A stretch of DNA of 64,000 nucleotides from contig JBBRWS010000005.1 of NCBI GenBank assembly GCA_038249055.1, forward strand, positions 1,822 to 65,821, in the 5' to 3' direction. The position numbers and the translations under genes are program-made. This DNA comes from Minisyncoccia bacterium (GTDB lineage Bacteria; Patescibacteriota; Minisyncoccia; Phycocordibacterales; UBA9973). Under the pieces are notes generated by a model. That model saw nothing but the letters and a program-made list of their open reading frames with translations, was not told where the DNA came from and did not search any database. Of this stretch, positions 3,346 through 55,903 are shown one piece after another. Positions within the stretch are counted from its first letter, which is position 1. The number at the start of each line of letters is the position of its first letter.

Positions 3346-4371
3346 ATGTCAAGTACAAATAAAACAAACAAATACATTCGTCCGGAGTCCTCAGTACCTT
3401 CACGGGATGAGGGTTTTTTAGACCAAACACTTCGCCCAGAGGTGTGGGGAGAGTATATTGGCCAAGAAAACATCAAGGCAAACCTCAAAATTCTACTTAC
3501 TGCTGCAGAGGAACGTGCTCATCCCGCTGAGCATATTCTTTTTTATGGTCCGCCAGGACTTGGTAAAACAACACTTGCACATTTAATAGCAAAAGAAACA
3601 CGTAGACAAATAAAAATAACGTCAGGGCCAGCAATAGAAAAAGTGGGAGACCTCGCTTCTATTTTAACAAACCTTTCACCTGGAGATATTGTTTTTATAG
3701 ATGAAATACACAGACTAAATAAGATGGTAGAGGAAATACTTTATCCAGCCATGGAGTCAGGTGTACTTGATATTATTATTGGTAAAGGACCCTCAGCTCG
3801 AACCATACAACTTGAACTTCCTCCCTTTACTCTTATTGCTGCAACAACTCGAATAGCATTGCTTTCGTCCCCTCTTCGTTCTAGATTCTCTGGGGGTGTG
3901 TTTCGTTTAGAATTTTATACTCATGATGAAATTAAAAAAATAATAAAGCGGTCTGCAAAAATCCTTGGCGTGGAATTAGAAGATGAAGCACTTGATGAAA
4001 TAGCAAAACGCTCTCGTTTTACTCCCCGTACTGCAAATTATTTTCTAAAACGCTGTCGTGATTATGCCCAAGTAAACAAAACACCTCTATCAAAAGAAGC
4101 TGTTAAAAAAGCCTTGGCATTACTTGAGATAGACGAGCTTGGGTTATCTTCTTCTGATAGGCGTATTTTAGATATAATAATTTCAAAATTTAACGGGGGT
4201 CCAGTTGGTTTAAAAACAATTGCTGCAGCTACAAGCGAAGAAGAAGCAACAATAGAAGAAGTTGTGGAACCATATTTAATTCAACTTGGGTTATTAGACC
4301 GTACTACACGTGGAAGAATTGTGACTAAAAAGGGTTACGAGCATTTGGGTTATGAGTTTACAGATAATTAA
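3346..4371 (+). CDS. ruvB: Holliday junction branch-migration ATPase RuvB
   Basis: 341 aa; Walker [10 protein letters not shown], Walker B DEIH, sensor motifs and C-terminal winged-helix typical of RuvB. Confidence 0.93.
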
Positions 4372-4465
4372 AAATTAATAATTAACCCAGTAGGTGATTT
4401 TACTAAATCAGAATTAATAATTTAAATACTAAAATACAAATATTTATTTTTAATTTAAATAGTCT

Positions 4466-4564
4466 TATTGTGGGGGCTTGTAAAGCTGTCGAGCTGAGCA
4501 CGAGGAATTTTTCAGCAGAAAGTATTTGATTCAGCTGAATCACCTCACGGGCGTGCCCCACAAG
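4466..4564 (-). repeat. Structured repeat element E1 (outer stem CTTGTGGGGC/GCCCCACAAG enclosing the CCCGTGAGGTGATTCAGCTGAATCA motif) in the ruvB-ruvC intergenic region
   Basis: Shares a 25-nt motif with elements at 5441..5531 and 55718..55745; the inner hairpin shows compensatory base changes between copies. Confidence 0.4.
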
Positions 4565-4599
4565 AAGAGCTATTTAAATTAAAAAATTGAAACTTAATT

Positions 4600-5097
4600 A
4601 TGAAAATTTTATCAATTGATCCGGGATTTGAAAGAATAGGAATAGCTATTATAGAAAAAACTTTTTTAAAAAAAGATATTTTAGTTTATTCAACTTGTTT
4701 TAAGACATCAGCAAAAATTCCATTTCCAGAAAGACTTAAAAACATCGGCAATGAAATTGAAAAAAATATAAAAAAATATAAACCTGAAGCACTTGCGATT
4801 GAAAAATTATATTTTACAACAAACCAAAAAACGGTTATGGGTGTATCTGAAGCTCGTGGAACTATTATTTACGTAGCGGCAAAAAATAATCTCGCTGTTT
4901 ATGAATACACACCTCCACAAATAAAAGTGGCTGTGACGGGGTATGGTAAGGCAAGTAAGGATATGATTATGTCGATGGTTCCAAAACTTATAGATATAAA
5001 AACTACCATAAATTCTGATGACGAAATGGACGCAATAGCTGTTGGTCTTACTTGTCTAGCTTGTAAAAATATTGATTTAATAAAAAAATTATTATAG
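4600..5097 (+). CDS. ruvC: Holliday junction resolvase RuvC
   Basis: 165 aa; N-terminal ILSIDPG(F)ERIGIAI motif and acidic catalytic residues of the RuvC family; follows ruvB. Confidence 0.85.
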   Translation: MKILSIDPGFERIGIAIIEKTFLKKDILVYSTCFKTSAKIPFPERLKNIGNEIEKNIKKYKPEALAIEKLYFTTNQKTVMGVSEARGTIIYVAAKNNLAVYEYTPPQIKVAVTGYGKASKDMIMSMVPKLIDIKTTINSDDEMDAIAVGLTCLACKNIDLIKKLL

Positions 5098-5249
5098 GGC
5101 TATTTATAGCTTGTTTTAAAAGTGTTTTTTAGTGTATAAAATTTTTTATTTTTAATAATTAAACTAAAGGTTATCCACAACCCATAAGGTATTGCAAAGC
5201 AAATTAGATTTTGCTACAAATAGTAAATTATAATTTGCTTAAATTTTTT

Positions 5250-5429
5250 ATGAGCTATATTGACGATGAAGAGTTAAAATTGGGTGACACTGTTGAGGAG
5301 GAAGAATTAGAAGAAGACCTTGATCTTGAAGATGGTCTTGGTGATTTAGTTGATGATGATCTCGAAGAAGATGATCTTGCTGATGATCTTTTTGCTGATG
5401 AAGTAAAAGGGTTAGAAGACACAGAATAA
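5250..5429 (+). CDS. Small extremely acidic protein (D/E-rich), hypothetical
   Basis: ATG at 5250 (the track ORF starts at an upstream TTG at 5211); more than 50% Asp/Glu; a perfect DnaA box TTATCCACA lies at about 5172-5181 upstream. Confidence 0.3.
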   Translation: MSYIDDEELKLGDTVEEEELEEDLDLEDGLGDLVDDDLEEDDLADDLFADEVKGLEDTE

Positions 5430-5440
5430 TATAAACAAAA

Positions 5441-5531
5441 AATAGCCCGTGAGGTGATTCTACTGAATCAAGGTTGTATGTCTACAAGAGACGCTTAACC
5501 TTCAATTACCAAATTGATCTACTGGGCTATT
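5441..5531 (+). repeat. Structured repeat element E2 (outer stem AATAGCCC/GGGCTATT + T-run; contains CCCGTGAGGTGATTCTACTGAATCA) between convergent genes; possible bidirectional terminator or small RNA
   Basis: A-run/T-run-flanked long stem-loop; its motif is shared with E1 and E3. Confidence 0.4.
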
Positions 5532-5541
5532 TTTTTATTAT

Positions 5542-6738
5542 TTATATTATTATTTTACAAAATCTTTTTTTACCTATTCTGTATACACCCTTCTCAACTT
5601 TGTCTGAATGAGAAGAAACTTTTTTGTCTAAATCTAAATTTGTTATTGCCCCTCCATCTACAAGCCTACGAAATTCTCCTTTTGAAGCAACGATTTTATT
5701 TACTAAAAACAAATCAATTAATAAGTCGTTTTTTTCAGCCTTAATATTTTCAATATCATCAGGAATTTCATTTTTTTGAAAAGTATTTACAAAATTTTCC
5801 TCTGCTTGTTTTGCTTTTTTTTCTCCATGATAAATAGAAACAATTTCTCTTGCTAATCTCATTTTGAAATCACGAGGGTTAGCTTTACCAGAAATTATAT
5901 CTTTTTTAATTACTTCAATTTCAGACATCGACACATTTGTGCATAGTTCAAAACCAGAAGCTATTAGTCCGTCAGTCCAACTCATAATCTTTCCATATAT
6001 TTCTTCTGGAGAATCAGAAAGTGCTGCCATATTGCCTTCCGTCTTACCCATCTTTTTTCCAGAGTTATCTTCAAGAAGTTTTACAGCAATAACAAACTTT
6101 TCTTTATTTTTCATTGTCTTCATTAAATCCCGGCCACAAAGCATGTTGAAGGTTTGGTCATTACCCCCAATTTCCCCGTCAACATTCATAGCAACAGAAT
6201 CATAGGCCTGCATGAGTGGATACATAAATTCATTTATATGTATTGGCTTACCTTCTTTCATTCTCTTTTCAAACATGTCGCGTTCGAGCATTTGCTGTAC
6301 TGTCATTTGTGAAGCTAAGTTTAGGACATCTTCGAAATTCATTTTTTTAAGCCAGGTTGAATTAAATTTAAACTGAGCAGGATTTTTACCAGAAAATGAC
6401 AACAATGAACTTGCTTGTTTTTTATAATTTTTTAGGTTGGCCATCACTTCTTTATGTGAAAGCTGTTTTCTTGTAGCACTTTTATCTGTAGGATCCCCAA
6501 TCATTGCAGTAAAATCACCCATCAATAAAACAACATGGTGTCCGGACTTTTGAAAATCACTTAAAATTTTAATAGGAATAGAATGTCCTAAGTGAAGGGT
6601 TGGTCCAGTTGGATCAATCCCTAAATAAAGAGTAAGCTTTTCACCGCGATTCATTTTGCTTAAAATAAAATCTTTAGATGGGTATGTAGCTGAAATACCT
6701 CTAGTTAATAGGTTATTATTTTGTATATTGCTGTTCAT
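5542..6738 (-). CDS. tyrS: Tyrosyl-tRNA synthetase
   Basis: 398 aa; class I HIGH-type motif (GIDPTGPTLHLGH), KMSKS-type KMGKTEGN, C-terminal S4-like domain. Confidence 0.88.
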   Translation of the reverse strand: MNSNIQNNNLLTRGISATYPSKDFILSKMNRGEKLTLYLGIDPTGPTLHLGHSIPIKILSDFQKSGHHVVLLMGDFTAMIGDPTDKSATRKQLSHKEVMANLKNYKKQASSLLSFSGKNPAQFKFNSTWLKKMNFEDVLNLASQMTVQQMLERDMFEKRMKEGKPIHINEFMYPLMQAYDSVAMNVDGEIGGNDQTFNMLCGRDLMKTMKNKEKFVIAVKLLEDNSGKKMGKTEGNMAALSDSPEEIYGKIMSWTDGLIASGFELCTNVSMSEIEVIKKDIISGKANPRDFKMRLAREIVSIYHGEKKAKQAEENFVNTFQKNEIPDDIENIKAEKNDLLIDLFLVNKIVASKGEFRRLVDGGAITNLDLDKKVSSHSDKVEKGVYRIGKKRFCKIII

Positions 6739-6942: not shown

Positions 6943-9522
6943 AGAAAAAACACAAAAAAAGATTTTATTAAAAAGATTATTTCAATTGTCCGTGGTCTTC
7001 CTCTTTTTATTATAAAAACAACAAAAAAACACTTTAAAAAGGGAACTTTTAAAAATATTATTTTAATTATTTTGGGGCTTGGTCTTGTTTTTACTGGTAT
7101 TTTAATGGTTTGGATTAGTACATTACAAATTCCGGATTTTAAATATTTTAACGAAAGAAGGATTCAAAGTTCAACAAAAATATACGACAGGACTGGAACA
7201 ATACTACTTTATGATGTTCATCAAAACATCAAAAGAACTGTTATTCCTTATGAACAAATAGGAGCAAGTATTTTAAATGCAACAGTCGCGATTGAAGATT
7301 CTGAATTTTACAAACATAATGGTATTCGTATTTCTTCTATAATTAGAGCAACCTTTTGGGCCAAACTAACAGGTAAAAAAGTTCAAGGTGGTTCAACTAT
7401 CACACAGCAATTAATTAAAAATACACTTCTTACTCCGGAGGTATCTCTTTCTCGTAAAATAAAAGAATGGATTTTAGCCGTAAAACTTGAAAAAGTAATG
7501 GGTAAAGATGAAATTTTAACTCTTTATCTTAATGAAGCTCCTTATGGTGGAAATATTTATGGAATAGAAGAAGCAACAAAAGCTTTTTTTGGTAAGACTC
7601 CAAAAGAAATAACTTTAGCAGAGGCTGCTTATTTAGCTGCTATTCCAAATGGTCCAACTTATTATTCTCCTTATCGTAAAAATAAAGACAAACTTGATGA
7701 GCGCAAAAATTTAGTATTAAGAAGAATGCTTGAATTAAATTTTATAAATGAGAGTGATTATAATAATGCCAAAGCTGAAGTAGTAACATTTTTACCAGAA
7801 CAACCTATGCATATTGCAGCTCCTCATTTTGTGTTTTACATAAAGGAATATTTAGAAAATAAATATGGTGTTGATATGGTTGAAGGAGGTGGATTAAAAG
7901 TAATAACTACATTAGATTACGACCTTCAAAAAAAAACTGAGGAAATAGCGGAACAAAAAGCAAAAGAAAACGAAAAAAATTGGGATGGTAAAAATGCGGC
8001 CGTAGTTGTAATAGATCCTAAAACAGGACAAATACTTTCCATGGTTGGTTCTCGAGATTATTTTGATACAACTACAGATGGAAATTTTAATGTGGCAACA
8101 GCGGCAAGACAGCCGGGTTCTTCTTTTAAACCAATTATTTATTCCTTGGCTTTTGAAAAAGGTTACACAGAAAAAACAACATTATTTGATGTTAAAACAG
8201 AATTTAATTCTTCTTGTAACCCATCAGCTTCTTCTACTTCTCAAACATGTTATTCACCAGATAATTATGATAATGCTTTTCGTGGTCCATTAACACTTAG
8301 AGAAGGACTTGCTCAGTCTATCAACATTATTGCTGTAAAGCTTTTATATTTAGTTGGTGTATCAGATTCTATTAAACTAGCACACAATTTAGGTGTTAGT
8401 ACCTTAAAAAATGACCCAAATCAATATGGTTTGACTTTAGTTATTGGAGGTGGAGAAACTACCCTTCTTGATATGACTTCTGTTTATGGTGTTTTTGCTA
8501 ATAATGGAATAAAAAATCCTACCCAGGGTATTTTGTCTGTTGAAGATGGTCTTAATAATATTTTAGAAAAATATGAAAGTAAACCACAACAAATACTACA
8601 ACCAAACACTACGCATATTTTATCTAGTATTTTATCAGATGATATAGCAAGAACTCCTACTTTTGGAGCAAATTCTATTTTAAATATTCCAGGAAGAGAA
8701 GTAGCTGTTAAAACTGGTACTACAAACAACAACAAGGATGCTTGGACTATTGGATATACGCCCTCTGTTGCTGTCGGTGTTTGGGTTGGTAACAATGACA
8801 ACAAACCAATGAAAAAAGGTGGTGCTGCCCTTGCTGGGCCCATCTGGAATGCTGTAATGAGAGAGTCTCTTAAAAATTTACCAGTGGAGTCTTTTGAAAA
8901 ACCAAACGAAACAGACAAATCAATTCCTCCTATTCTTCGTGGTTTTTGGCAAGGAGGAGAAACCTTTACTATGGACTCTGTATTTGGAGGGTTAGCAACT
9001 GAATACACCCCAGAAGCACTAAAGAAAGAAATATCTATAACTAATGTTCATACTATTTTATATTGGATAGATAAGAAAAATCCTCTTCAGCCTTTTATTT
9101 CACCTCAATTAAATGATTCACAATATGAAAATTGGGAATATGGTGTTCAAAAATGGTGGGAGGTTAATAGTTATAAATATAAAATAGTAACATTGCTTGA
9201 TAAACCAACCACATACGACACAATTCACACAGATGAACAAAAACCTATTTTAGAAATAAATGGAATTGAAAATAAAATATATAAAAATGATGAAAATATT
9301 ACAATTTCAATAAATTCAAAAAATATAAACCCTCTTGTAAAAGTAGATGTTTTTATAAATAATATATATTTAACATCATTAAAAACAACTCCTTTTTCTA
9401 CATCTTTTATACCAAATGACATTAATGGTATTTCAAATTTAAATATTATTCGTGTTATGGGTGTTGATACCTTAGGAAACAAAGGGGAGCAAAGTATTTC
9501 TTTTAAAACAGAAAATATATAA
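6940..9522 (+). CDS. mrcA: Class A penicillin-binding protein (bifunctional glycosyltransferase/transpeptidase, PBP1A-like) with C-terminal extension
   Basis: 860 aa; N-terminal TM; GT51 motifs (EDSEFYKHNG, GGSTITQQL); transpeptidase motifs SSFK, SxN-like, KTGTT. Confidence 0.88.
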   Translation: MRKNTKKDFIKKIISIVRGLPLFIIKTTKKHFKKGTFKNIILIILGLGLVFTGILMVWISTLQIPDFKYFNERRIQSSTKIYDRTGTILLYDVHQNIKRTVIPYEQIGASILNATVAIEDSEFYKHNGIRISSIIRATFWAKLTGKKVQGGSTITQQLIKNTLLTPEVSLSRKIKEWILAVKLEKVMGKDEILTLYLNEAPYGGNIYGIEEATKAFFGKTPKEITLAEAAYLAAIPNGPTYYSPYRKNKDKLDERKNLVLRRMLELNFINESDYNNAKAEVVTFLPEQPMHIAAPHFVFYIKEYLENKYGVDMVEGGGLKVITTLDYDLQKKTEEIAEQKAKENEKNWDGKNAAVVVIDPKTGQILSMVGSRDYFDTTTDGNFNVATAARQPGSSFKPIIYSLAFEKGYTEKTTLFDVKTEFNSSCNPSASSTSQTCYSPDNYDNAFRGPLTLREGLAQSINIIAVKLLYLVGVSDSIKLAHNLGVSTLKNDPNQYGLTLVIGGGETTLLDMTSVYGVFANNGIKNPTQGILSVEDGLNNILEKYESKPQQILQPNTTHILSSILSDDIARTPTFGANSILNIPGREVAVKTGTTNNNKDAWTIGYTPSVAVGVWVGNNDNKPMKKGGAALAGPIWNAVMRESLKNLPVESFEKPNETDKSIPPILRGFWQGGETFTMDSVFGGLATEYTPEALKKEISITNVHTILYWIDKKNPLQPFISPQLNDSQYENWEYGVQKWWEVNSYKYKIVTLLDKPTTYDTIHTDEQKPILEINGIENKIYKNDENITISINSKNINPLVKVDVFINNIYLTSLKTTPFSTSFIPNDINGISNLNIIRVMGVDTLGNKGEQSISFKTENI

Positions 9523-9830: not shown

Positions 9831-10928
9831 CTACTTATTCATTGGCATAACTAAATACATAAAAGAAGGATCTCCTACTCCTTTAATAATCATTGGTTTA
9901 TTACTTCCATCCAGCTCAATACTTAAACTGTCTCCGGAAATAGATTGAAAGCAGTCTAATATATATTTATAATTAAAATTAGCAGAAACACTGTCTCCTG
10001 ATAATGCTCCAGATATTTGAGTTGTATTTTCTCCTACATCAATATTTTTTGATTCTATTTCAAATACTTTATCATTTGGTTTAATGGTTAAAATAATTTG
10101 ATTATATTTACCCGAAAAAATATTAGATATTTTTAAAGATGAAATAAAGTCTTGTTTTAAAACAATAGCTTGAGTTGTTGGATTTTTAGGAATAATTTGT
10201 TTATAGTCTGGAAAACTTCCATCCACAATGCGTGAGGTTAAATAAATGTTTTCTACAGAAAAAGATATTTGGTTTTTTTGAAGTGTAACTTTAATATCAT
10301 CCTCTATTCCATCAAAAACTTTTATTATTTCAACCACGTTTTTATAAGGTATTAATATACCAGAAAAAGATAGTTTTTGTTTTATTTTTATTTTCTTTTC
10401 TGCTAAACGGAAAGAATCAGTTGAAACAAAAACCAACATATCATCTTCTGGATAAATATAAACACTTCCTATTTCTGGTTTTATTTCTGAAATAGAAGCA
10501 CTATAATAAACTGATTTAATGCCGTCAATAAATTTTTTTGTTTGGATTAAAAAACTTTCTCCCTCCACTATTGGTATAGTTGGAAAGTCTTCATGTGAAA
10601 TACTTTTCAATAAAATTGTACTTGTTTTTGTTTTAACTAATAAGTTTCCATTTATTAATTCAAAACTAACCATTAAGTCTCCTTGTAAAATAGAAAACAA
10701 AGAAGATAAAATATCTCCACGAACAGCAACAACTCCTTCTTTTTCTATTTTAGCAGGAATTTCAATCTCTATTCCTATATTTAAATTTGTAGCCCTAAGT
10801 TTTAATGTTTTACCGGTAGCAACCCATAAAACAGAACCGAGAACAGGGAGTGTTAAATTTTTACCTGTTATTCTTTCTACTGAAACTAATGCTTTTTTAA
10901 TTCTATCTATTGAACATTCTATTTTCAT
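9831..10928 (-). CDS. dnaN: DNA polymerase III beta sliding clamp
   Basis: 365 aa; three-domain clamp-like pattern; immediately downstream of dnaA on the same strand. Confidence 0.9.
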   Translation of the reverse strand: MKIECSIDRIKKALVSVERITGKNLTLPVLGSVLWVATGKTLKLRATNLNIGIEIEIPAKIEKEGVVAVRGDILSSLFSILQGDLMVSFELINGNLLVKTKTSTILLKSISHEDFPTIPIVEGESFLIQTKKFIDGIKSVYYSASISEIKPEIGSVYIYPEDDMLVFVSTDSFRLAEKKIKIKQKLSFSGILIPYKNVVEIIKVFDGIEDDIKVTLQKNQISFSVENIYLTSRIVDGSFPDYKQIIPKNPTTQAIVLKQDFISSLKISNIFSGKYNQIILTIKPNDKVFEIESKNIDVGENTTQISGALSGDSVSANFNYKYILDCFQSISGDSLSIELDGSNKPMIIKGVGDPSFMYLVMPMNK

Positions 10929-11180
10929 AATATTTTTTTTATTAAATGACTAATTGTAATCTACTATTGTTTATAACTTATATATTAATACTTACTATTA
11001 CTATTATAGGTGTGAATATGTGAATTACTAATAAACACAATAAAACTAAACCTTTTTTTATAATTATTAATTTAATTATAATTATAACTTGTTGATTATT
11101 TTTTCTTTTTTAAATTAACAACTATTTTTCCACATTTTTAATTTCTTTAAACACAACTTTTCCACAGACTTATTAGTTTT
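10929..11180. other. oriC segment 1 (dnaA-dnaN intergenic): AT-rich with DnaA-box-like 9-mers (TTTTCCACA x2; TGTGAATAT)
   Basis: 252-nt, about 15% GC, noncoding region between dnaA and dnaN containing 8/9 matches to TTATCCACA. Confidence 0.6.
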
Positions 11181-12554
11181 TTATTTAAACATAATTCTAA
11201 TCTTTTCTATTTCTTGTAATAAAGATGGATCTGTTTTTAAATCCACCTTTATTTTTAAATGAGAGTGGATTACGGTTGTGTGGTCTCTATCCCCTAATTT
11301 TTGACCTATTAATGGATATGAAATATTAAAATCTTCACGAAGTAAATACATTGCAACTTGCCTAGCTCTAACAATTTCTTTTCTTCTTGTTTTTTCATAA
11401 ATAACTTCTTCCGCAAGGCCGTAATGGTCTGCTACAATTTTAACAATATCTTTAATAGCAACAGTTTTTTTAGGTCTAATGTTGTTTTTTATAAGTGTTT
11501 TAACTTCAGATAAAGTTAATGCTCTATTTTTTAATTGAGACTGACAAATAACAGTATTTAAACTACCCTCAAGTTCTCTTATGTTCCCTTCTAGTGATTC
11601 TGCTAAAGAAGAAACTATTTCTGGTTCAATTATACAATTAGTAGATTCAAATTTTGCTTTTATTATAGCAACACGAGATTCATAATCTGGTTCAACTATT
11701 TGAACCGTCATACCAGAAGCAAAACGAGACTGTAATCTGTCCTCAAGTCCTTGAATAAAATTTGGGTGCTTATCAGAAGAAAAAATTATTTGTTTATTGT
11801 TTTCATATAAGGTATTAAAAAGATGAAATAGCTCTTCTTGTGTTTTGTCTTTTCCAGAGATAAATTGAATATCGTCCATTATAATTACATCATATTTTCT
11901 ATATTTTTCTTTAAATGAATTAGGGTTTTTATTTTGAATAGAATTTATATAATCGATAGTAAACCGCTCTAAAGAAACATAATAAACCTTTTTTAAAGGG
12001 TGGTTTATTTTAATAGTATTACCTATTGCTTGAATCATGTGTGTTTTACCCAACCCTGTTCCCCCATAAACAAAAAAAGGATTATAGTTTTGACCAGGGT
12101 TTGTTATTATTGCTTGAGCAACAGCATAAGCAAGCTCATTAAAAGGGCCAACAATAAAAGAATTAAAATTATATTTGGGGTTTAAATTATCTTCTTTGTT
12201 TATATATAAATCATTTAAAGGAAGTTCTTTGTTTATGTTTACGGGTGTTTTTATTATAACCCGATCATTATTTTTAATTTCTTGATCATATTTTGATTCT
12301 TGTTTGTGTATAAAATATTCAACACCACGAATACTATCTTCGTTACCAATAAGAGTTTTTAGAATAAGTTTATGAAATTTATTATAAAGCCAATCTTTAA
12401 CAAATTCATTTGGAACTCCTACGTGAATAACACCTGCATCTTCCTTTATTATATAGGTATTTTTGAACCAAGTTGTAAAATTAGCTTTTGAAATACTTAA
12501 TTCAATTTCTAATAGGCACTTGTTCCAGAGTTCTTTTGTTTCCATAGGGCCCAT
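11181..12554 (-). CDS. dnaA: Chromosomal replication initiator DnaA
   Basis: 457 aa; AAA+ Walker A GGTGLGKTH, Walker B, C-terminal DnaA-box-binding helix-turn-helix. Confidence 0.95.
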   Translation of the reverse strand: MGPMETKELWNKCLLEIELSISKANFTTWFKNTYIIKEDAGVIHVGVPNEFVKDWLYNKFHKLILKTLIGNEDSIRGVEYFIHKQESKYDQEIKNNDRVIIKTPVNINKELPLNDLYINKEDNLNPKYNFNSFIVGPFNELAYAVAQAIITNPGQNYNPFFVYGGTGLGKTHMIQAIGNTIKINHPLKKVYYVSLERFTIDYINSIQNKNPNSFKEKYRKYDVIIMDDIQFISGKDKTQEELFHLFNTLYENNKQIIFSSDKHPNFIQGLEDRLQSRFASGMTVQIVEPDYESRVAIIKAKFESTNCIIEPEIVSSLAESLEGNIRELEGSLNTVICQSQLKNRALTLSEVKTLIKNNIRPKKTVAIKDIVKIVADHYGLAEEVIYEKTRRKEIVRARQVAMYLLREDFNISYPLIGQKLGDRDHTTVIHSHLKIKVDLKTDPSLLQEIEKIRIMFK

Positions 12555-12672
12555 TATACATTGTTTTTGGGTTCTTCAATAATAAAATACCTTAATTAAC
12601 ATGTTGATATCATGTGGATATGTTTTTGTTTTTATGTTGCAATATTGAGTAATATAGTATATATTATCCAAT
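12555..12672. other. oriC segment 2 (dnaA-rpmH intergenic) with DnaA-box-like TGTGGATAT and TTATCCAAT
   Basis: Divergent dnaA/rpmH arrangement; AT-rich; two near-consensus DnaA boxes. Confidence 0.6.
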
Positions 12673-12813
12673 ATGTCTCAAACGTACCAACCAAATAAAA
12701 GAAAAAGAGCAAAAACACATGGCTTTCTTGTTCGAGCTAAAACACCAAACGGCAGAAAAGTAAACACTGCACGACGCCAAAAAGGTAGAGCAAACGTATC
12801 AATAAAGAAATAA
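12673..12813 (+). CDS. rpmH: 50S ribosomal protein L34
   Basis: 46-aa [49 protein letters not shown]; below the ORF-track length cutoff; canonical position before rnpA. Confidence 0.9.
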
Positions 12814-12815
12814 AT

Positions 12816-13136
12816 ATGCTTCCAAAAAAAAAGCGGGTAACAAAAGGGGTTTTTCAAGTCCTATTAAAGGAAGGAAAAACTTTTTCTACCAAGCTTTTTT
12901 TGTTGTATTTTATAAAAAATGAAACCCCTCAATATGCGGTAGTTGCACCCAAAGGGGTGTTTAAAAGTGCAGTAAAAAGAAATAAATTTAGAAGAATTGG
13001 TTATAATATTCTTCGTTCCCTTCCAATAAAGTCAGGTATTGGGGTATTTATGTATAAAAAACAAGCAATTACAGCTGAAAACCTAGAAATAAAGGAAAAT
13101 ATTATATCTTTATTAAAAAAAATAAATATTATTTAA
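12816..13136 (+). CDS. rnpA: RNase P protein component
   Basis: 106 aa basic protein right after rpmH; RnpA-like KKRVTKG...FRRIGY motif region. Confidence 0.8.
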   Translation: MLPKKKRVTKGVFQVLLKEGKTFSTKLFLLYFIKNETPQYAVVAPKGVFKSAVKRNKFRRIGYNILRSLPIKSGIGVFMYKKQAITAENLEIKENIISLLKKINII

Positions 13137-13343
13137 ATGACTAAAATTATTGTTTGGTTAATAAATGTTTATCAAAAAACACCATTAAGGTCTCATTCAT
13201 CCTGTGTTTTTTTGCCAACGTGTTCAGAGTATACAAAACAATCTGTATTAAAATACGGGGCTTTTATGGGCATTACAAGAGGTTTTATAAGGATATTACG
13301 CTGTCATCCTTGGCAAAAGAACCACTATGATCCGGTTAAATAA
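13137..13343 (+). CDS. yidD: Membrane protein insertion efficiency factor YidD
   Basis: 68 aa; conserved C..PTCSEY motif (SCVFLPTCSEYT). Confidence 0.85.
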   Translation: MTKIIVWLINVYQKTPLRSHSSCVFLPTCSEYTKQSVLKYGAFMGITRGFIRILRCHPWQKNHYDPVK

Positions 13344-13437
13344 TTAAGAATTAATAATTAATAATTACGAACTGGAAACAACAAAGGAATAATCACAATC
13401 CTTTCTACTTTTTAACTTCTTATGATACAATAGACGA

Positions 13438-14178
13438 ATGTCAGAACTATGGAATACTGCATTTTACGAGCCAATATATAACATACTTATCTTTATAATT
13501 AACAACGTCACCTTTGGCGATGTTGGTTTTGCTGTTATTTTAGTGACTATTATTGTTAAATTAATACTCTCCCCTCTTACAAAAAAATCTATAAAAAGTC
13601 AGATTCTTATGAAGAGAATGGAGCCTGAAATAAAACAGATTAAAAAAGATTATCCAAACAAAGAAGAACAAGCCAAGCAAACATTTTTATTGTATAAAAA
13701 ATACGGGACAAACCCTTTTTCTGGTTGTTTAGTAATAATTCTTCAGCTACCAATTATTTTTGCTTTGTATTATGTTTTTTATAACGGTCTTTCTATTGAT
13801 GCCACTAAAATATATTCATTTATTCAAATACCCACTAACCTCTATACAAACTTTTTGGGCTTATTGGAAATGGGACAGAAAAGTATCTTTTTAGGATTAT
13901 TGGCTGGAGTAACACAATTTATACAAGGATATCTTGCAATCCCAATAAAAGCGAAGGTTGAAATTGTAACGGGTGCTGATTTAAATACTCCAAAAACTTT
14001 TCAAGAACAACTTTCAGATAGTATGCAAATGAACGTAAAATATATACTCCCTGTGTTTATAGCCTTTATAGCTTGGAAGATTTCTGCAGCAGTAGCATTG
14101 TATTGGGTTACAAGTAACATTTTTACAATTGTTCAAGAATGGTATATTCGAAGACAATTAGAAAAGAATTCAATATAA
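13438..14178 (+). CDS. yidC: Membrane protein insertase YidC (short form)
   Basis: 246 aa; 5 predicted TMs; YidC/Oxa1 core; position after rnpA-yidD. Confidence 0.85.
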   Translation: MSELWNTAFYEPIYNILIFIINNVTFGDVGFAVILVTIIVKLILSPLTKKSIKSQILMKRMEPEIKQIKKDYPNKEEQAKQTFLLYKKYGTNPFSGCLVIILQLPIIFALYYVFYNGLSIDATKIYSFIQIPTNLYTNFLGLLEMGQKSIFLGLLAGVTQFIQGYLAIPIKAKVEIVTGADLNTPKTFQEQLSDSMQMNVKYILPVFIAFIAWKISAAVALYWVTSNIFTIVQEWYIRRQLEKNSI

Positions 14179-14189
14179 ATATTTATTTA

Positions 14190-14292
14190 TCCCGATAGAA
14201 ATTTAACAAACAAACAAAACATGGTAAGTTTTAAAGGGATAAAAATAAAGTAAGTCCAAACCATTAGCAACTAATAAATTTCACACGGGATG
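14190..14292 (+). promoter_or_regulatory. Degenerate instance 5 of the 5'-leader inverted-repeat element (TCCCGATAGAAAT ... ATTTCACACGGG abutting the jag ATG)
   Basis: Outer 5 bp of each arm complementary (TCCCG/CGGGA, GAAAT/ATTTC); weaker than the other instances. Confidence 0.25.
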
Positions 14293-14763
14293 TATAAAAA
14301 TAAAATAAAAGAAACAGTTGAAGAAATTTTTAAACACACAGCATGTACTATTACTAAGTGTGAGTTTTCTGAAGAAAGCGGAATGCTTTGGTGTATGATA
14401 GAAACACCAGATTCAAGTTATATGATTGGAAGAGAAGGAGAAACACTTCGTTCTTTAAATCACGTCGTTCAAAAAATAGTAGAGAAAGATGTAATAAAAA
14501 CAGAGGAAAAAGGGCCAAGTATTTTTATTGATATCAATGGCTATCAAAAAAAACGATTCGAAAATTTAAAAAACATAGCTCACATGATGGCTGAACGCGC
14601 AAGATATTTTAAGAGTAATATTGAAATTGATCCAATGCCAGCATTTGAAAGAAGAATAATACACATGTTTTTAGAAGGAATTAAAGATATAAAAACAGAG
14701 TCAGAAGGATATGGTCCAACAAGAAGAGTGGTTATTAAGTACATCGGTGATAGTAGTATGTAG
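14290..14763 (+). CDS. jag: Jag/KhpB-like RNA-binding protein (KH-like + R3H domains)
   Basis: 157 aa; R3H-like motif near the C-terminus; canonical position after yidC. Confidence 0.75.
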   Translation: MYKNKIKETVEEIFKHTACTITKCEFSEESGMLWCMIETPDSSYMIGREGETLRSLNHVVQKIVEKDVIKTEEKGPSIFIDINGYQKKRFENLKNIAHMMAERARYFKSNIEIDPMPAFERRIIHMFLEGIKDIKTESEGYGPTRRVVIKYIGDSSM

Positions 14764-21762: not shown

Positions 21763-21874
21763 AAATATAATTAACCCATAGGGTGATTCTGTTGAATCAT
21801 AATTAACAATTACTAATTAAAAACAAAATAAGAACTTACTACAAACATTGTATCATAATATTATTAATTCTAAA

Positions 21875-35711: not shown

Positions 35712-35732
35712 AATTATATAGTAGCACTTTTG

Positions 35733-35769
35733 GAGGTCCAACCTCAAATTGGCTTCGGAGGTTGTACCT
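35733..35769 (-). other. 13-bp imperfect stem-loop (GAGGTACAACCTC ... GAGGTTGGACCTC on the minus strand) between the uvrD stop and the rsmA start
   Basis: Not followed by a U-run; more likely a processing or attenuation structure than an intrinsic terminator. Confidence 0.35.
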
Positions 35770-37719
35770 CTATAAATAAACTATTTTTTCTCGGCCAGAA
35801 TTGTGTGCTTGTTCAAAGACCGTGAGATGTGCAGGAATGTCATAAATAAATTCACTGGGTTGATTTACTTGTTTCATTCCATAAATTGTACGGAGGGTGG
35901 CGTAAGATAAAAATAATTTTTCTCTTGCACGAGTGATGGCTACATAAAATAATCTTCTCTCTTCTTCTGTGTCCTCTTTTCTTTTCATACGATCTTTAAT
36001 ATGAGGAAAAAGATCTTGTTCTAATCCAGTAATAAAAACATATTTAAATTCTAATCCCTTTGAAGCATGAACAGTCATTAGTCTCACACCCCTACCTTTA
36101 TTTTCATGCATAAGTGTATCTTGATCACTTGATAAAGATGCATCTTCGAGAAGTTTTTCCATTCCTATTCCATCTGGTAAATTATCATATTTAATAGCTA
36201 GAGTTACTAATTCCATCATATTTTCCAAGCGTTCTTGCTCGTCTGTAGTACCATGAGATAATTCATCTTTTATTCCACTTTTTTCTATTACGTATCTAAT
36301 TGATTCCGAAGGTTTGTGTGTTTCTACATAATTATGAATATCATCAACTATTTTATAAAAATTATTAATTTTTTCTTGAGTACCACGTGGTAACTCATTC
36401 ATTTGGTTTGCAAAAAGTTTTGCAATTGTAACCTTACCTATTCCTCGAGCGGGAATATTTATTATTCTTTTAATGTCCGATAAACCCTCCTTGTTATAAG
36501 AGACACGTATATATGCAAGTACATCTTTAATCTCTTTACGTTCAAAAAACTTAACACCAAGAACTTGATAAGGAATTTGTTTATCAAGTAGTGCTTCTTC
36601 TATTACTCGGGATTGGAAGTTGGCACGATAAAGAATTGCAATATTTTCAGGGTCATTATTTTTTAATAATTCATCTATTTTTGATGCAACAAAAGAAGCT
36701 TCACTTTGTTCGTCAAAAGCTTCACAAATACTAATCTCTTCACCTGCGACATTTTCTGTAAATAAAATTTTAGGAACACGATATTGATTCTTTTCTATAA
36801 TACTATTTGCAGCCTCAATAATATTTTTTGTTGAACGATAATTTTGTTCTAATAAAATTATTTTTGCTGTAGGAAAATCTTTTTCAAAATGAAGCATGTT
36901 TTTAATATTTGCTCCACGCCAGCTATAAATGTTTTGGTCAGTATCACCAACAACACAAATATTTTCCTCTTTTCCTACTAATAGTTTTGTCATCTCATAT
37001 TGAACTTCATTTGTATCCTGATACTCATCAATATGAAGATACTTCCATCTAGCTTGATAGCGAAGTTTTACTTCCGGATATTTTTTTAGTATTAAAACAC
37101 TTTCAAGTAATAAATCATCAAAATCTAAAGCCTTTTCTTTTTTGAGCTGAGCTTCATAATCACGCCATATAACAGATACAATACTCTGCACTGCACTATT
37201 CACATTATCACTAAAAGTATCTACAGTTATAAAATCACCTTTTGATTTAGAAATAATAGATTTGATTTTTCTTGGCTCGTGTTGTTTTGGGTCAATGTCA
37301 CGCACCTTCATAATATTTTTAATAATACTCAAAGCACCACCTTCATCCATAATTGTAAAGTATTTATTTAATCCAATTAAATGAGAATTTTCTTTTATTA
37401 TATGCACCCCAAGAGAATGAAAAGTAGAGACAAATGGCACATTATCTGTATTACCAAAATTATCTTTTTTGATATCATTTCCATGAATTGGCTCGTTTAA
37501 CATAGTCATTATTCTATCCCGCATCTCCTTTGAAGCTTTATTTGTGAATGTTACTGCCAGAATGGACTGTGGATCTATTCCCTTGTGTATAAGGTGTATT
37601 ATTCGATGAGTTATTGTTTTAGTTTTTCCTGCCCCTGCTCCAGCTACAATTAAAAGTGGTCCTTCTGTGTAAAGAACGGCTTCTTTTTGTTTTTCATTTA
37701 AAGAATCAAGATATTTCAT
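35770..37719 (-). CDS. pcrA: UvrD/PcrA/Rep-family DNA helicase
   Basis: 649 aa; Walker A AGAGAGKT, helicase motifs II-VI (DEYQDT, ..GDTDQNIYSWRGA, VTFHSLG...), C-terminal motif region. Confidence 0.88.
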   Translation of the reverse strand: MKYLDSLNEKQKEAVLYTEGPLLIVAGAGAGKTKTITHRIIHLIHKGIDPQSILAVTFTNKASKEMRDRIMTMLNEPIHGNDIKKDNFGNTDNVPFVSTFHSLGVHIIKENSHLIGLNKYFTIMDEGGALSIIKNIMKVRDIDPKQHEPRKIKSIISKSKGDFITVDTFSDNVNSAVQSIVSVIWRDYEAQLKKEKALDFDDLLLESVLILKKYPEVKLRYQARWKYLHIDEYQDTNEVQYEMTKLLVGKEENICVVGDTDQNIYSWRGANIKNMLHFEKDFPTAKIILLEQNYRSTKNIIEAANSIIEKNQYRVPKILFTENVAGEEISICEAFDEQSEASFVASKIDELLKNNDPENIAILYRANFQSRVIEEALLDKQIPYQVLGVKFFERKEIKDVLAYIRVSYNKEGLSDIKRIINIPARGIGKVTIAKLFANQMNELPRGTQEKINNFYKIVDDIHNYVETHKPSESIRYVIEKSGIKDELSHGTTDEQERLENMMELVTLAIKYDNLPDGIGMEKLLEDASLSSDQDTLMHENKGRGVRLMTVHASKGLEFKYVFITGLEQDLFPHIKDRMKRKEDTEEERRLFYVAITRAREKLFLSYATLRTIYGMKQVNQPSEFIYDIPAHLTVFEQAHNSGREKIVYL

Positions 37720-55520: not shown

Positions 55521-55832
55521 AAGAAAATTAGACTACGATATTTTTGTGCGATAGATATCTAGGAGAATCGCGAGATACTCTAGCTGGTACTTTTCTATCT
55601 TCGATAAGGAAAAGTCTTCCGATTCTCCTATGAGAGCAAAACTATTTGCTCTCTATCCCGCACAAAAAGCTTAGCTTATTTTTGTGCGGGATACCCAGTA
55701 GGTCATTTTGCTAAATGACCCGTGAGGTCATTCTACTGAATGAGGATCATCAATTCCGATTCTCCTATTAAATTTAACCTGCAATATCGTTCTACTTGTT
55801 AACTTATACATAATAACCGTATATTTTTTTTG

Positions 55833-55903
55833 TGCGGGATAGGAGAATCGGACTCCTGTCTCATCCTTGGCAAGGACGTGTTCTACCACTAAACCAATCC
55901 CGC
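55833..55903 (-). tRNA. tRNA-Gly (anticodon GCC)
   Basis: Cloverleaf folded by hand: acceptor GCGGGAT/ATCCCGC, D-stem GTTT/GAAC, anticodon stem CGTCC/GGATG, loop TTGCCAA, T-arm AGGAG-TCCGATT-CTCCT; close to E. coli tRNA-Gly(GCC); no encoded CCA. Confidence 0.85.

Follow-up and report, generated by a model that had tools for sequence, protein, structure and literature searches.

A probably mobile 25-nucleotide hairpin unit resembling REPs in intergenic DNA of Paceibacterota

The 25-nt unit and its copies in the window

The stretch analysed here, 64 kb of the Minisyncoccia contig JBBRWS010000005.1 (called the window; coordinates refer to it unless an L-numbered locus is named), contains a spacer between ruvB and ruvC and a second gap between a small open reading frame (ORF, plus strand) and tyrS (minus strand). 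A first-pass annotation had recognised a structured element in each of them, E1 and E2, which share a hairpin-bearing motif with each other and with a third site near 55.7 kb, and had read the three as structured RNAs that are related and act in a common way at the RNA level. The part that they share turns out to be no more than a 25-nt unit, which behaves as an insertion. With a probability of about 0.62, we consider this unit to be a discrete mobile palindromic element of the repetitive extragenic palindromic (REP) kind, acting at the DNA level.

Seven copies of the unit are present in the window, with zero expected. Three of them had been reported and lie as described: U2 (4527-4551, minus strand; CCCGTGAGGTGATTCAGCTGAATCA; covariance model (CM) score 28.2 bits), U3 (5446-5470, plus strand; CCCGTGAGGTGATTCTACTGAATCA; 36.2 bits) and U7 (55719-55743, plus strand; CCCGTGAGGTCATTCTACTGAATGA). 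Four more had been missed. U1 (4386-4410, plus strand; CCCAGTAGGTGATTTTACTAAATCA, the GTAG-tagged CCCAGTAGGT form) is located 15 nt past the ruvB stop codon and is matched by both pattern and CM (49.6 bits). U4 (5502-5526, minus strand; CCCAGTAGATCAATTTGGTAATTGA; 16.9 bits, E = 0.06) is a diverged copy within E2, and TCAAT-stem variants similar to it are also found in L007 and L008. U5 (21775-21799, plus strand; CCCATAGGGTGATTCTGTTGAATCA; 22 bits) has a degenerate tag and lies between an unknown gene and a PrgI-like gene (Pfam). U6 (55694-55718, plus strand; CCCAGTAGGTCATTTTGCTAAATGA; 44.8 bits) abuts U7, forming a head-to-tail tandem.

That the motif is no chance repeat, as had been argued, is supported by shuffling. 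Taken by itself, the 10-mer CCCGTGAGGT exceeds chance weakly (3 matches versus 0.7 expected, with 3 of 100 shuffles reaching 3), and the full 25-nt pattern CCCRTRAGGTSATTYNRCTRAATSA with at most three mismatches gives 6 matches in the window versus none in 100 shuffles. A CM built from 85 metagenome copies finds all seven window copies with filters off, and an independent Logan assembly (L125) carries the identical arrangement of units. Furthermore, the units form dimers, either head-to-head (5446/5502 and 4386/4527), head-to-tail (55694/55719) or tail-to-tail (in L008), as well as mosaic clusters such as those at E1, E2 and the 55.7-kb site.

Each unit consists of CCC, AGTA or GTGA, and GG, followed by a 6-bp stem with a 4-nt loop. 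The 5' tag is single-stranded and reads (A)CCCA-GTAG-G, with GTGA in a local subtype; the perfect stem and its URCU tetraloop follow the formula T-S-ATT-N / loop / N'-AAT-S'-A. A metagenome scan with an exact pattern found the unit in at least 120 contigs, and the statistics given below (136 instances, 85 distinct units) describe the matches listed in that scan; because the pattern fixed many positions, only those left free are informative. AGTA follows CCC in 111 of 136 instances, giving CCCA-GTAG-G, where the pattern permitted 24 alternatives; the variants include GGTA and, in 7 instances, GTGA, the three window copies reported first among them. The loop reads TACT in 63 and TGCT in 44 instances. 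Base -1 is A in 85%, base +1 is G in 61% and base +2 is a purine in 89% of the instances.

The stem differs between copies and stays complementary, and the earlier claim of a G-C to C-G swap was confirmed in the window sequence. Of the two variable stem pairs, one (the S-S' pair, which covaries between G-C and C-G) is complementary in 129 of the 136 metagenome instances and the other in 126 of 136. The closing pair, which was neither filtered nor imposed by the search, is C-G in 39, U-A in 28, G-C in 17 and G-U in 1 of the 85 distinct units and unpaired in none, so that the further copies keep their pairing by compensatory changes. All 510 stem cells of these units are paired, the other variable pair having been pre-filtered for complementarity. 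This covariation reflects selection for a hairpin, and a hairpin in single-stranded DNA accounts for it as well as an RNA hairpin does. An adapter or primer artefact was also considered, since the literature matches to CCCAGTAGGT are to GTTTCCCAGTAGGTCTC, a primer for random amplification that departs from it after 10 nt; an artefact is excluded because the covariation is natural and the assemblies are independent.

Several minor features of the unit sequence were observed. The AGUA tag is the exact complement of the UACU loop and pairs with UGCU through one G-U pair, and the GTGA subtype is without this complementarity. Units closed by C-G could form an alternative 6-bp hairpin, CAGUAG/CUACUG, mutually exclusive with the main stem. 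In L048 (5540-5564, minus strand) and L109 (7342-7366, plus strand) the unit lies inside stop-free stretches of 317 and 687 codons, where its sole open frame reads P-V-G-D-(F/S)-(A/T)-(K/E)-S and joins the upstream and downstream frames; two cases are too few to interpret. An A-U closing pair, which would yield TAA in the open frame, is never present among 121 well-formed units.

The contigs that carry well-formed instances have a GC content of 0.28-0.60, and the hosts range from Pacebacteria-like bacteria to Kaiserbacteria. L004 belongs to a Paceibacterota metagenome-assembled genome and L006 to Candidatus Kaiserbacteria with 58% GC; homologues of the window RuvC, 80-88% identical, are named Candidatus Paceibacterota, Pacebacteria and Nomurabacteria. 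The pattern used to scan contigs of a genome collection excluded the dominant AGTA form, and this count is therefore an undercount. A phage or plasmid origin of the unit was rejected, as no match was found in 2.9 million viral contigs (IMG/VR) and no credible one in plasmids (PLSDB).

With crude gene calls, about 88% of the units are intergenic and their orientation relative to the flanking genes is random (opposite/opposite 23, same/same 22, opposite/same 14, same/opposite 13). All-against-all clustering of 529 neighbouring ORFs gave no family present in more than six loci. The largest families are an ABC transporter, a serine recombinase, a reverse transcriptase of the diversity-generating-retroelement (DGR) type, LepA, LeuRS and similar, and those of the serine recombinase and the reverse transcriptase each represent a single orthologous site. 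Likewise, among the 150 ORFs nearest to units, every Pfam family was limited to two matches at most. An association with a particular gene was rejected because no neighbour recurs and the DGR cases are one orthologous site, which is empty in L051. The TAG of the tag serves as the stop codon of the upstream ORF in five loci.

Filled and empty sites

About nine comparisons between filled and empty sites reveal an exact insertion of 25 nt with no target duplication, mostly at A|GR. A repeat in L059 that resembles a miniature transposable element with inverted repeats (MITE) ends in ...CATTCCCGCGAAAGCG|GGAATCCAG in three copies, and in a fourth copy, as at both ends of a copy in L052, CCCAGTAGGTCATTTTGCTAAATGA stands between GCG and GGAAT. 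The boundaries of these insertions cannot be shifted by one base, and nothing is duplicated. Other clean pairs are L124/L007 (GGCA|GG), L075/L108 (TTCTA|GG), L039/L049, L057/L051 and L060/L092, the unit of the last two being placed in the tetraloop of a host hairpin. A unit of L007 lies within a hairpin of the H family (see below) that is empty in L083, and in L009 and L063 one unit is nested in another at CCCAGTA|GGT. In the Kaiserbacteria locus L006, a unit stands directly before the stop codon of murJ, ACGGCT[TGATTCAGCAGAATCACCTACTGGG]TAA, where L140-L144 read ACGGCTTAA or ACGGCTTAG; the TGA of the inserted unit becomes the stop.

For the window itself, the U1 site (4386) is filled in the window and in the closest relative, L126, and L127 and L129 have the empty site. 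The whole of this region is unit-free in nine further syntenic loci, and in the relatives the same 5-kb region is free of units and holds no replacement element. Overall, the sites of insertion include other repeats, MITE ends, terminators, loops of structured elements and other units, so that a unit is often found within or beside another hairpin. The usual target deduced from the filled and empty pairs is therefore A|GR, and tandem and nested arrangements arise because the unit ends in A and contains TA|GG. A target-site duplication was hinted at by AT-rich direct repeats near 4386 and 21775; it was rejected, as the clean pairs show none.

Two sites deserve a separate description. One orthologous unit site (L005 365, L036 36, L057 1728, L062 617 and L078 1046; empty in L051 at about 2373-2421) lies in the non-coding spacer of a DGR-like cassette, downstream of which come the gene for a reverse transcriptase and a template-like repeat rich in Asn codons; here the unit occupies the UACG loop of a small conserved hairpin. 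The second is shared by L093 (7534-7562), L119 (6376-6404) and L114 (441-469), whose flanks are near-identical over about 45 nt on each side with one variable position. Three positions set the L114 unit apart from the other two, among them a compensatory change from G-C to C-G, and from the sequences it looks as if, at this one site, replacement or conversion has put one unit variant in the place of another. In L114, the gene of a large serine recombinase is located 250 nt downstream of the unit.

Comparison with REPs and alternative readings

Published REPs are 20-50 nt long, carry GTAG 5' of the stem, have stems of 5-13 bp and loops of 2-4 nt, comprise subfamilies set apart by complementary changes in the stem, form head-to-head, tail-to-tail and head-to-tail dimers, and can provide a stop codon through the TAG of the tag (PMC3733652, PMC8266576). 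The unit resembles them in size, in a GTAG-type tag 1-2 nt from a perfect stem and in its conserved loop bases (PMC3733652, PMC8266576, PMC3333891). With 25 nt, a perfect 6-bp stem and a 4-nt loop it is a small palindromic stem-loop within the 20-50 nt range, and an unpaired GTAG-type tetranucleotide stands at the 5' foot of the stem. Furthermore, it shares with GTAG-tagged REPs the subfamilies with complementary stem substitutions, the intergenic placement, the three kinds of dimer, the mosaic clusters, the TAG stop codon and the GTRG-like tag variants. The closest described form is that of the 'group 3' REPs, which are short perfect palindromes with a perfect stem of 5-9 bp and a loop of 2-4 nt (PMC3733652, PMC8266576, PMC3333891), and in which GTAG lies 1-2 bases from a 5-bp stem and loop bases are required for cleavage. 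Collectively, the unit falls within the structural definition of a GTAG-tagged REP and is organised in a REP-like manner. Exact insertion boundaries and an A|GR target, as found here, are, to our knowledge, not documented for classical REPs.

Other small mobile or repeated elements are similar in part. Bacterial interspersed mosaic elements (BIMEs) and REP doublets forming hairpins (REPINs) likewise hold inverted unit pairs, 30-120 nt apart, together with other conserved intergenic motifs (PMC3116915, PMC2817692); E2 and the 4386/4527 pair are examples, and E2 can be folded as one long hairpin. In contrast to BIMEs and REPINs, the paired units are not near-identical and single units insert alone, and because the pairs are not near-identical the doublet is unlikely to be the replicating entity. 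The IS200/IS605 family shares with the unit a hairpin accompanied by a guide tetranucleotide on its 5' side, entry 3' of a short target that is not duplicated, and two junctions cut behind like short sequences (here NA|); however, its members have two distinct hairpins, a tnpA gene and a well-conserved target of 4-5 nt, whereas the unit has one hairpin and no gene. The two subterminal hairpins expected of an IS200/IS605 derivative, a palindrome-associated transposable element (PATE) or a MITE were not found, the inserted block being a single 25-nt hairpin with unambiguous ends. The small dispersed repeats of heterocystous cyanobacteria, as Elhai et al. reportedly described in 2008, are 21-27 nt long, capable of forming hairpins, exactly inserted, nested and without a known mobilising enzyme. 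They resemble the unit in tiny size, exact insertion, nesting and placement in repeats and structured regions, and differ from it in being of unrelated sequence and restricted, as families SDR1-8, to Nostocaceae, which belong to another phylum; they are not known to carry a GTAG-type tag.

How the unit moves can be proposed by analogy with REPs and the hairpin ends of IS200/IS605, whose properties it shows. In these systems, enzymes of the HUH/Y1 type bind a folded single strand, the tetranucleotide 5' of the stem picks the dinucleotide cleavage site on either side, and the strand is transferred (PMC8266576, PMC3333891, PMC3733652). A sequence-specific enzyme of this type, like the REP-associated tyrosine transposase (RAYT), or a functionally equivalent one, may read the unit hairpin in single-stranded DNA, cut behind an A on either side and transfer the unit to a like site. 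The two junctions of the unit, NA|CCC and TSA|GR, each lie 3' of an A, which is in keeping with cleavage and rejoining at like sites. Such a single-strand cut-and-join would explain the stem pairing, the conservation of tag and loop and the absent duplication; the mobilising enzyme itself is a prediction.

A number of observations weigh against assigning the unit to mobile REPs. Its GTAG is not terminal as in described REPs, since CCCA precedes it and belongs to the unit, and the three window copies reported first carry GTGA instead. Movement has been inferred from presence and absence and never directly observed. By Pfam, none of the 62 window ORFs is a RAYT or Y1 transposase; they include a Xer-like tyrosine recombinase, a small GIY-YIG protein and type IV secretion-like genes. 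The E. coli RayT protein had no phmmer match in the 4,720 ORFs of all loci, and no cognate RAYT gene (PF01797), as would be flanked by units in a REPtron, was found in the window or within about 5 kb of 120 metagenome units. Because RAYT is normally a single-copy gene, its absence is weak evidence. The density of units is low in most contigs, with about 12 extra units in 753 kb and most contigs holding one, whereas classical REPs number hundreds per genome; the unit-rich stretches are the window (7 in 64 kb), L004 (4 in 3.8 kb) and L067 (5 in 15 kb). REP stems are usually lineage-specific, whereas genomes that range from 28 to 60% GC carry almost the same unit, an identity that is partly imposed by the search pattern. 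Proteobacterial REPs are depleted from divergent (promoter) gaps; crude gene calls placed 45 units in co-directional, 13 in convergent and 14 in divergent gaps, with neither depletion of divergent gaps nor the preference for convergent and co-directional ones. The unit also differs from known REPs in its host, which belongs to a Candidate Phyla Radiation (CPR) phylum outside the eight phyla listed in 2013, and we found no paper in which genomes of Parcubacteria, Patescibacteria or the CPR are connected with REPs or RAYTs.

A more speculative version of mobility, which we hold as a doubtful possibility, places the unit among the smallest mobile DNA units and has it moved by something other than a RAYT, either an unrecognised conserved nuclease or transferase of Paceibacterota for single-strand hairpins or a recruited housekeeping enzyme. 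A non-RAYT enzyme would explain the near base-for-base identity in genomes of 31% to 58% GC, the low copy number, the exact A|GR insertion and the lack of a nearby transposase. If this were true, the unit, the H hairpin and the two-hairpin element that hosts U2 would together make up a system, specific to CPR bacteria, in which hairpin modules are nested in intergenic DNA.

A mobile unit of the REP kind would matter in several respects. The genomes of CPR bacteria are among the smallest and most streamlined known and are thought to be poor in selfish DNA; a 25-nt repeat that is conserved across orders of Paceibacterota and gained and lost as an exact block would mean that their intergenic DNA is actively remodelled. 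The manner in which REP-type hairpins spread is, as far as we know, unsolved even in E. coli, and the unit offers clean material on this question, with unambiguous ends, mapped targets and many filled and empty pairs. Units can alter gene ends because they supply stop codons and terminator arms, as in the U3/U4 dimer, which contributes to the hairpin of the terminator that separates the small ORF from tyrS. Since units, singly or in mosaics, look like structured RNAs, terminators or small-RNA genes in comparative scans, masking them before non-coding RNA calling in CPR genomes is advisable.

The first alternative is that the unit is a functional RNA module, a protein-binding, processing or stability hairpin copied into many transcripts. 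It would account for the strict conservation of tag and loop together with a covarying stem in genomes of 28-60% GC, for the complementarity of the AGUA tag to the URCU loop, for sense units just past stop codons (4386 after ruvB, 5446 after the small ORF), and for insertions that add an arm to a structured element and leave the pairing of the host intact. However, the units show no orientation preference relative to flanking genes, as expected from random placement, and 4 of the 6 scored window units are antisense to the upstream gene and 2 of 6 sense. They are also present or absent among close relatives without any compensating element, are nested in one another, match no Rfam family and have no consistent class of gene upstream or downstream. 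A dedicated RNA function of the unit, as originally suggested, is therefore disfavoured, and we regard the module as unlikely.

The second alternative, for which we see rather slim prospects, treats the unit as a selected DNA site, bound or shaped by a nucleoid protein, a topoisomerase or a replication or segregation factor, with its patchiness due to loss and recombination. Independence of orientation and intergenic placement fit this, as does the window, which is unusually rich in units and spans dnaA-dnaN-rnpA, the presumed origin region; E. coli REPs, moreover, bind gyrase and integration host factor (PMC3733652, PMC8266576). Yet a dimeric binding site predicts neither compensatory stem changes nor a one-sided tag of 9 nt. 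Insertions into the ends of multi-copy MITEs that have empty sister copies, together with nesting, indicate gain over loss, and the same 5-kb region of the relatives is without units or any replacement.

The last alternative, that E1 and E2 are paralogous small-RNA genes of about 90 nt with the 25-nt motif as their core, has good folds (z = -3.1 to -5.4), outer stems and the T-run of E2 in its favour and is nonetheless scarcely credible, since the two share nothing beyond the unit, the E1 host element is unit-free in L126, L127, L129 and L074, the E2 site holds unrelated terminators in nine relatives, and the E1 unit runs opposite to the likely transcription of its host.

Neither the unit nor its host elements were matched in a search of Rfam 15 with the window and 28 loci (gathering or E-value thresholds). 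Besides tRNA, tmRNA and 16S rRNA genes elsewhere, this search gave weak sub-threshold matches to unrelated families, which fall in coding sequence at 5293-5400, on the minus strand over E2 (MIR841, 15 bits), in a tRNA-derived hairpin at 55654-55693 and otherwise away from units and hosts. Signal recognition particle RNA, a tRNA-like or anticodon-arm mimic, a kink-turn, a sarcin-ricin motif, hammerhead and other ribozymes and a Cas12a-type repeat were rejected on the Rfam result, a loop of 4-6 nt rather than 7, and absent core motifs.

Host elements and neighbouring features

Two further unclassified hairpin families, the E1 host and the H hairpin, accompany the unit. The E1 host (4453-4588, plus strand), identified by an nhmmer match, a four-sequence alignment and unit-free orthologues, is a three-way-junction element of about 70-110 nt outside the unit family, with a long covarying outer stem and two inner hairpins. 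Hairpin A, GAGCGCG-ACGG/UCGG-CGCGAG, has a UCGG-type loop; hairpin B, GGAAUUUUUC-AGCA-GAAAAAUAUCC (GAAA...), has a bulged A and a conserved AGCA loop. In the alignment of only four sequences, 13 of 36 pairs show compensatory changes.

The outer stems previously reported for E1 (CTTGTGGGGC/GCCCCACAAG) and E2 (AATAGCCC/GGGCTATT) and the T-run after E2 were all confirmed, with the difference that the E1 stem is not part of the motif. It is the stem of the E1 host, for which relatives have CAAAGGGG/CCCUUUG, CAAGGGG/CCCCUUG and CAGAGGGG/CCCUCUG, and which occupies the ruvB-ruvC spacers of L126, L127 and L129 in unit-free form, as an element of about 95 nt; a unit is present there solely in the window and L125. 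U2 sits in the three-way junction, where it runs counter to ruvB and ruvC and adds an extra arm to the conserved spacer element, and is likely on the strand opposite to transcription of the host.

Copies of the E1 host are dispersed, multiple and found in varied gene contexts on both strands: in the window (4453-4588 minus 4527-4551), L126 (1207-1316), L127 (2876-2987), L129 (2877-2988), L074 (2857-2968, minus strand), L009 (about 5760-5875, 7840-7960 and 9320-9430) and L092 (about 630-760, 7540-7670 and 8940-9065). The copy in L060 has a unit in a loop. The element was not found in the same spacer of L131-L139, and it has no Rfam match. The element may represent a family of small RNAs or else one more family of repeats.

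The E2 composite (5436-5537) consists of an A-run, U3, a central hairpin, the inverted U4 and a T-run, and it has the shape of a bidirectional terminator (fold z = -5.4 on the plus and -4.7 on the minus strand). U3 and U4 form a head-to-head dimer around the 31-nt central hairpin (5471-5501), AGGTTGTATGTCT-ACAAG-AGACGCTTAACCT, which resembles the H family (GTTGGACCTCT / AGAGGTCCAAC). Where the small ORF and tyrS converge, every relative likewise has a hairpin placed between an A-run and a T-run, and the hairpin is unrelated in each: plain ones in L126, L128, L129, L131, L133, L135 and L137-L139, and an H-type hairpin in L127. The idea of a conserved structured RNA at E2 thus gives way, because the hairpins of the relatives are unrelated, to a colonised bidirectional terminator that is not a conserved small-RNA gene.

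The H hairpin, AGAGGTCCAACCTC-nnnTGGCTTCGG-AGGTTGKACCTCT, is about 40 nt long and highly conserved across contigs. It acts as a hairpin or terminator between genes, and units have frequently inserted into it. It was found in the window (35732-35771), L007 (about 1800-1840 and 5780-5830), L008 (2340-2460), L083 (about 3380-3421) and L127 (1558, 3524-3563 and 3840-3915), and in many copies in L067.

Three decayed copies of the tRNA-Gly(GCC) 3' end are present near 55.7 kb, and one of them holds U6 and U7 in tandem; without the two units the sequence rejoins as GCGGGATA|GGA, the reverse complement of that 3' end. The three copies occupy 55540-55830, next to the tRNA-Gly(GCC) gene itself (55832-55903, minus strand), and include a perfect 15-bp inverted pair, TATCCCGCACAAAAA / TTTTTGTGCGGGATA. 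One copy is interrupted at about 55632-55656 by another hairpin, GAGAGCAAAACTATTTGCTCTC, with a TAT repeat, 25 nt in all. To judge by its sequence, the region looks like the scars of repeated integration at tRNA-Gly.

The order of genes at 9831-14763, namely dnaN and dnaA on the minus strand, then rnpA, yidD, yidC and a jag-like R3H gene on the plus strand, suggests that the window spans the replication origin at about 12.55-12.8 kb. The GC skew is not clean, and the 33 matches to the DnaA box, versus 23 expected, are barely above chance. With the origin taken next to dnaA, five of the seven window units lie on the presumed lagging-strand template, which is not significant. The small ORF beside E2 (5211-5429) encodes an acidic product with no Pfam match. 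Upstream of it, a promoter-like block at 5100-5215, GGTTATCCACA...GGTATTGCAAAGAAAATTATATTTTGATACAAATAGTGCATTATAAT, is conserved in the syntenic loci L126-L139 and in many relatives includes a perfect DnaA-box-like sequence, TTATCCACA.

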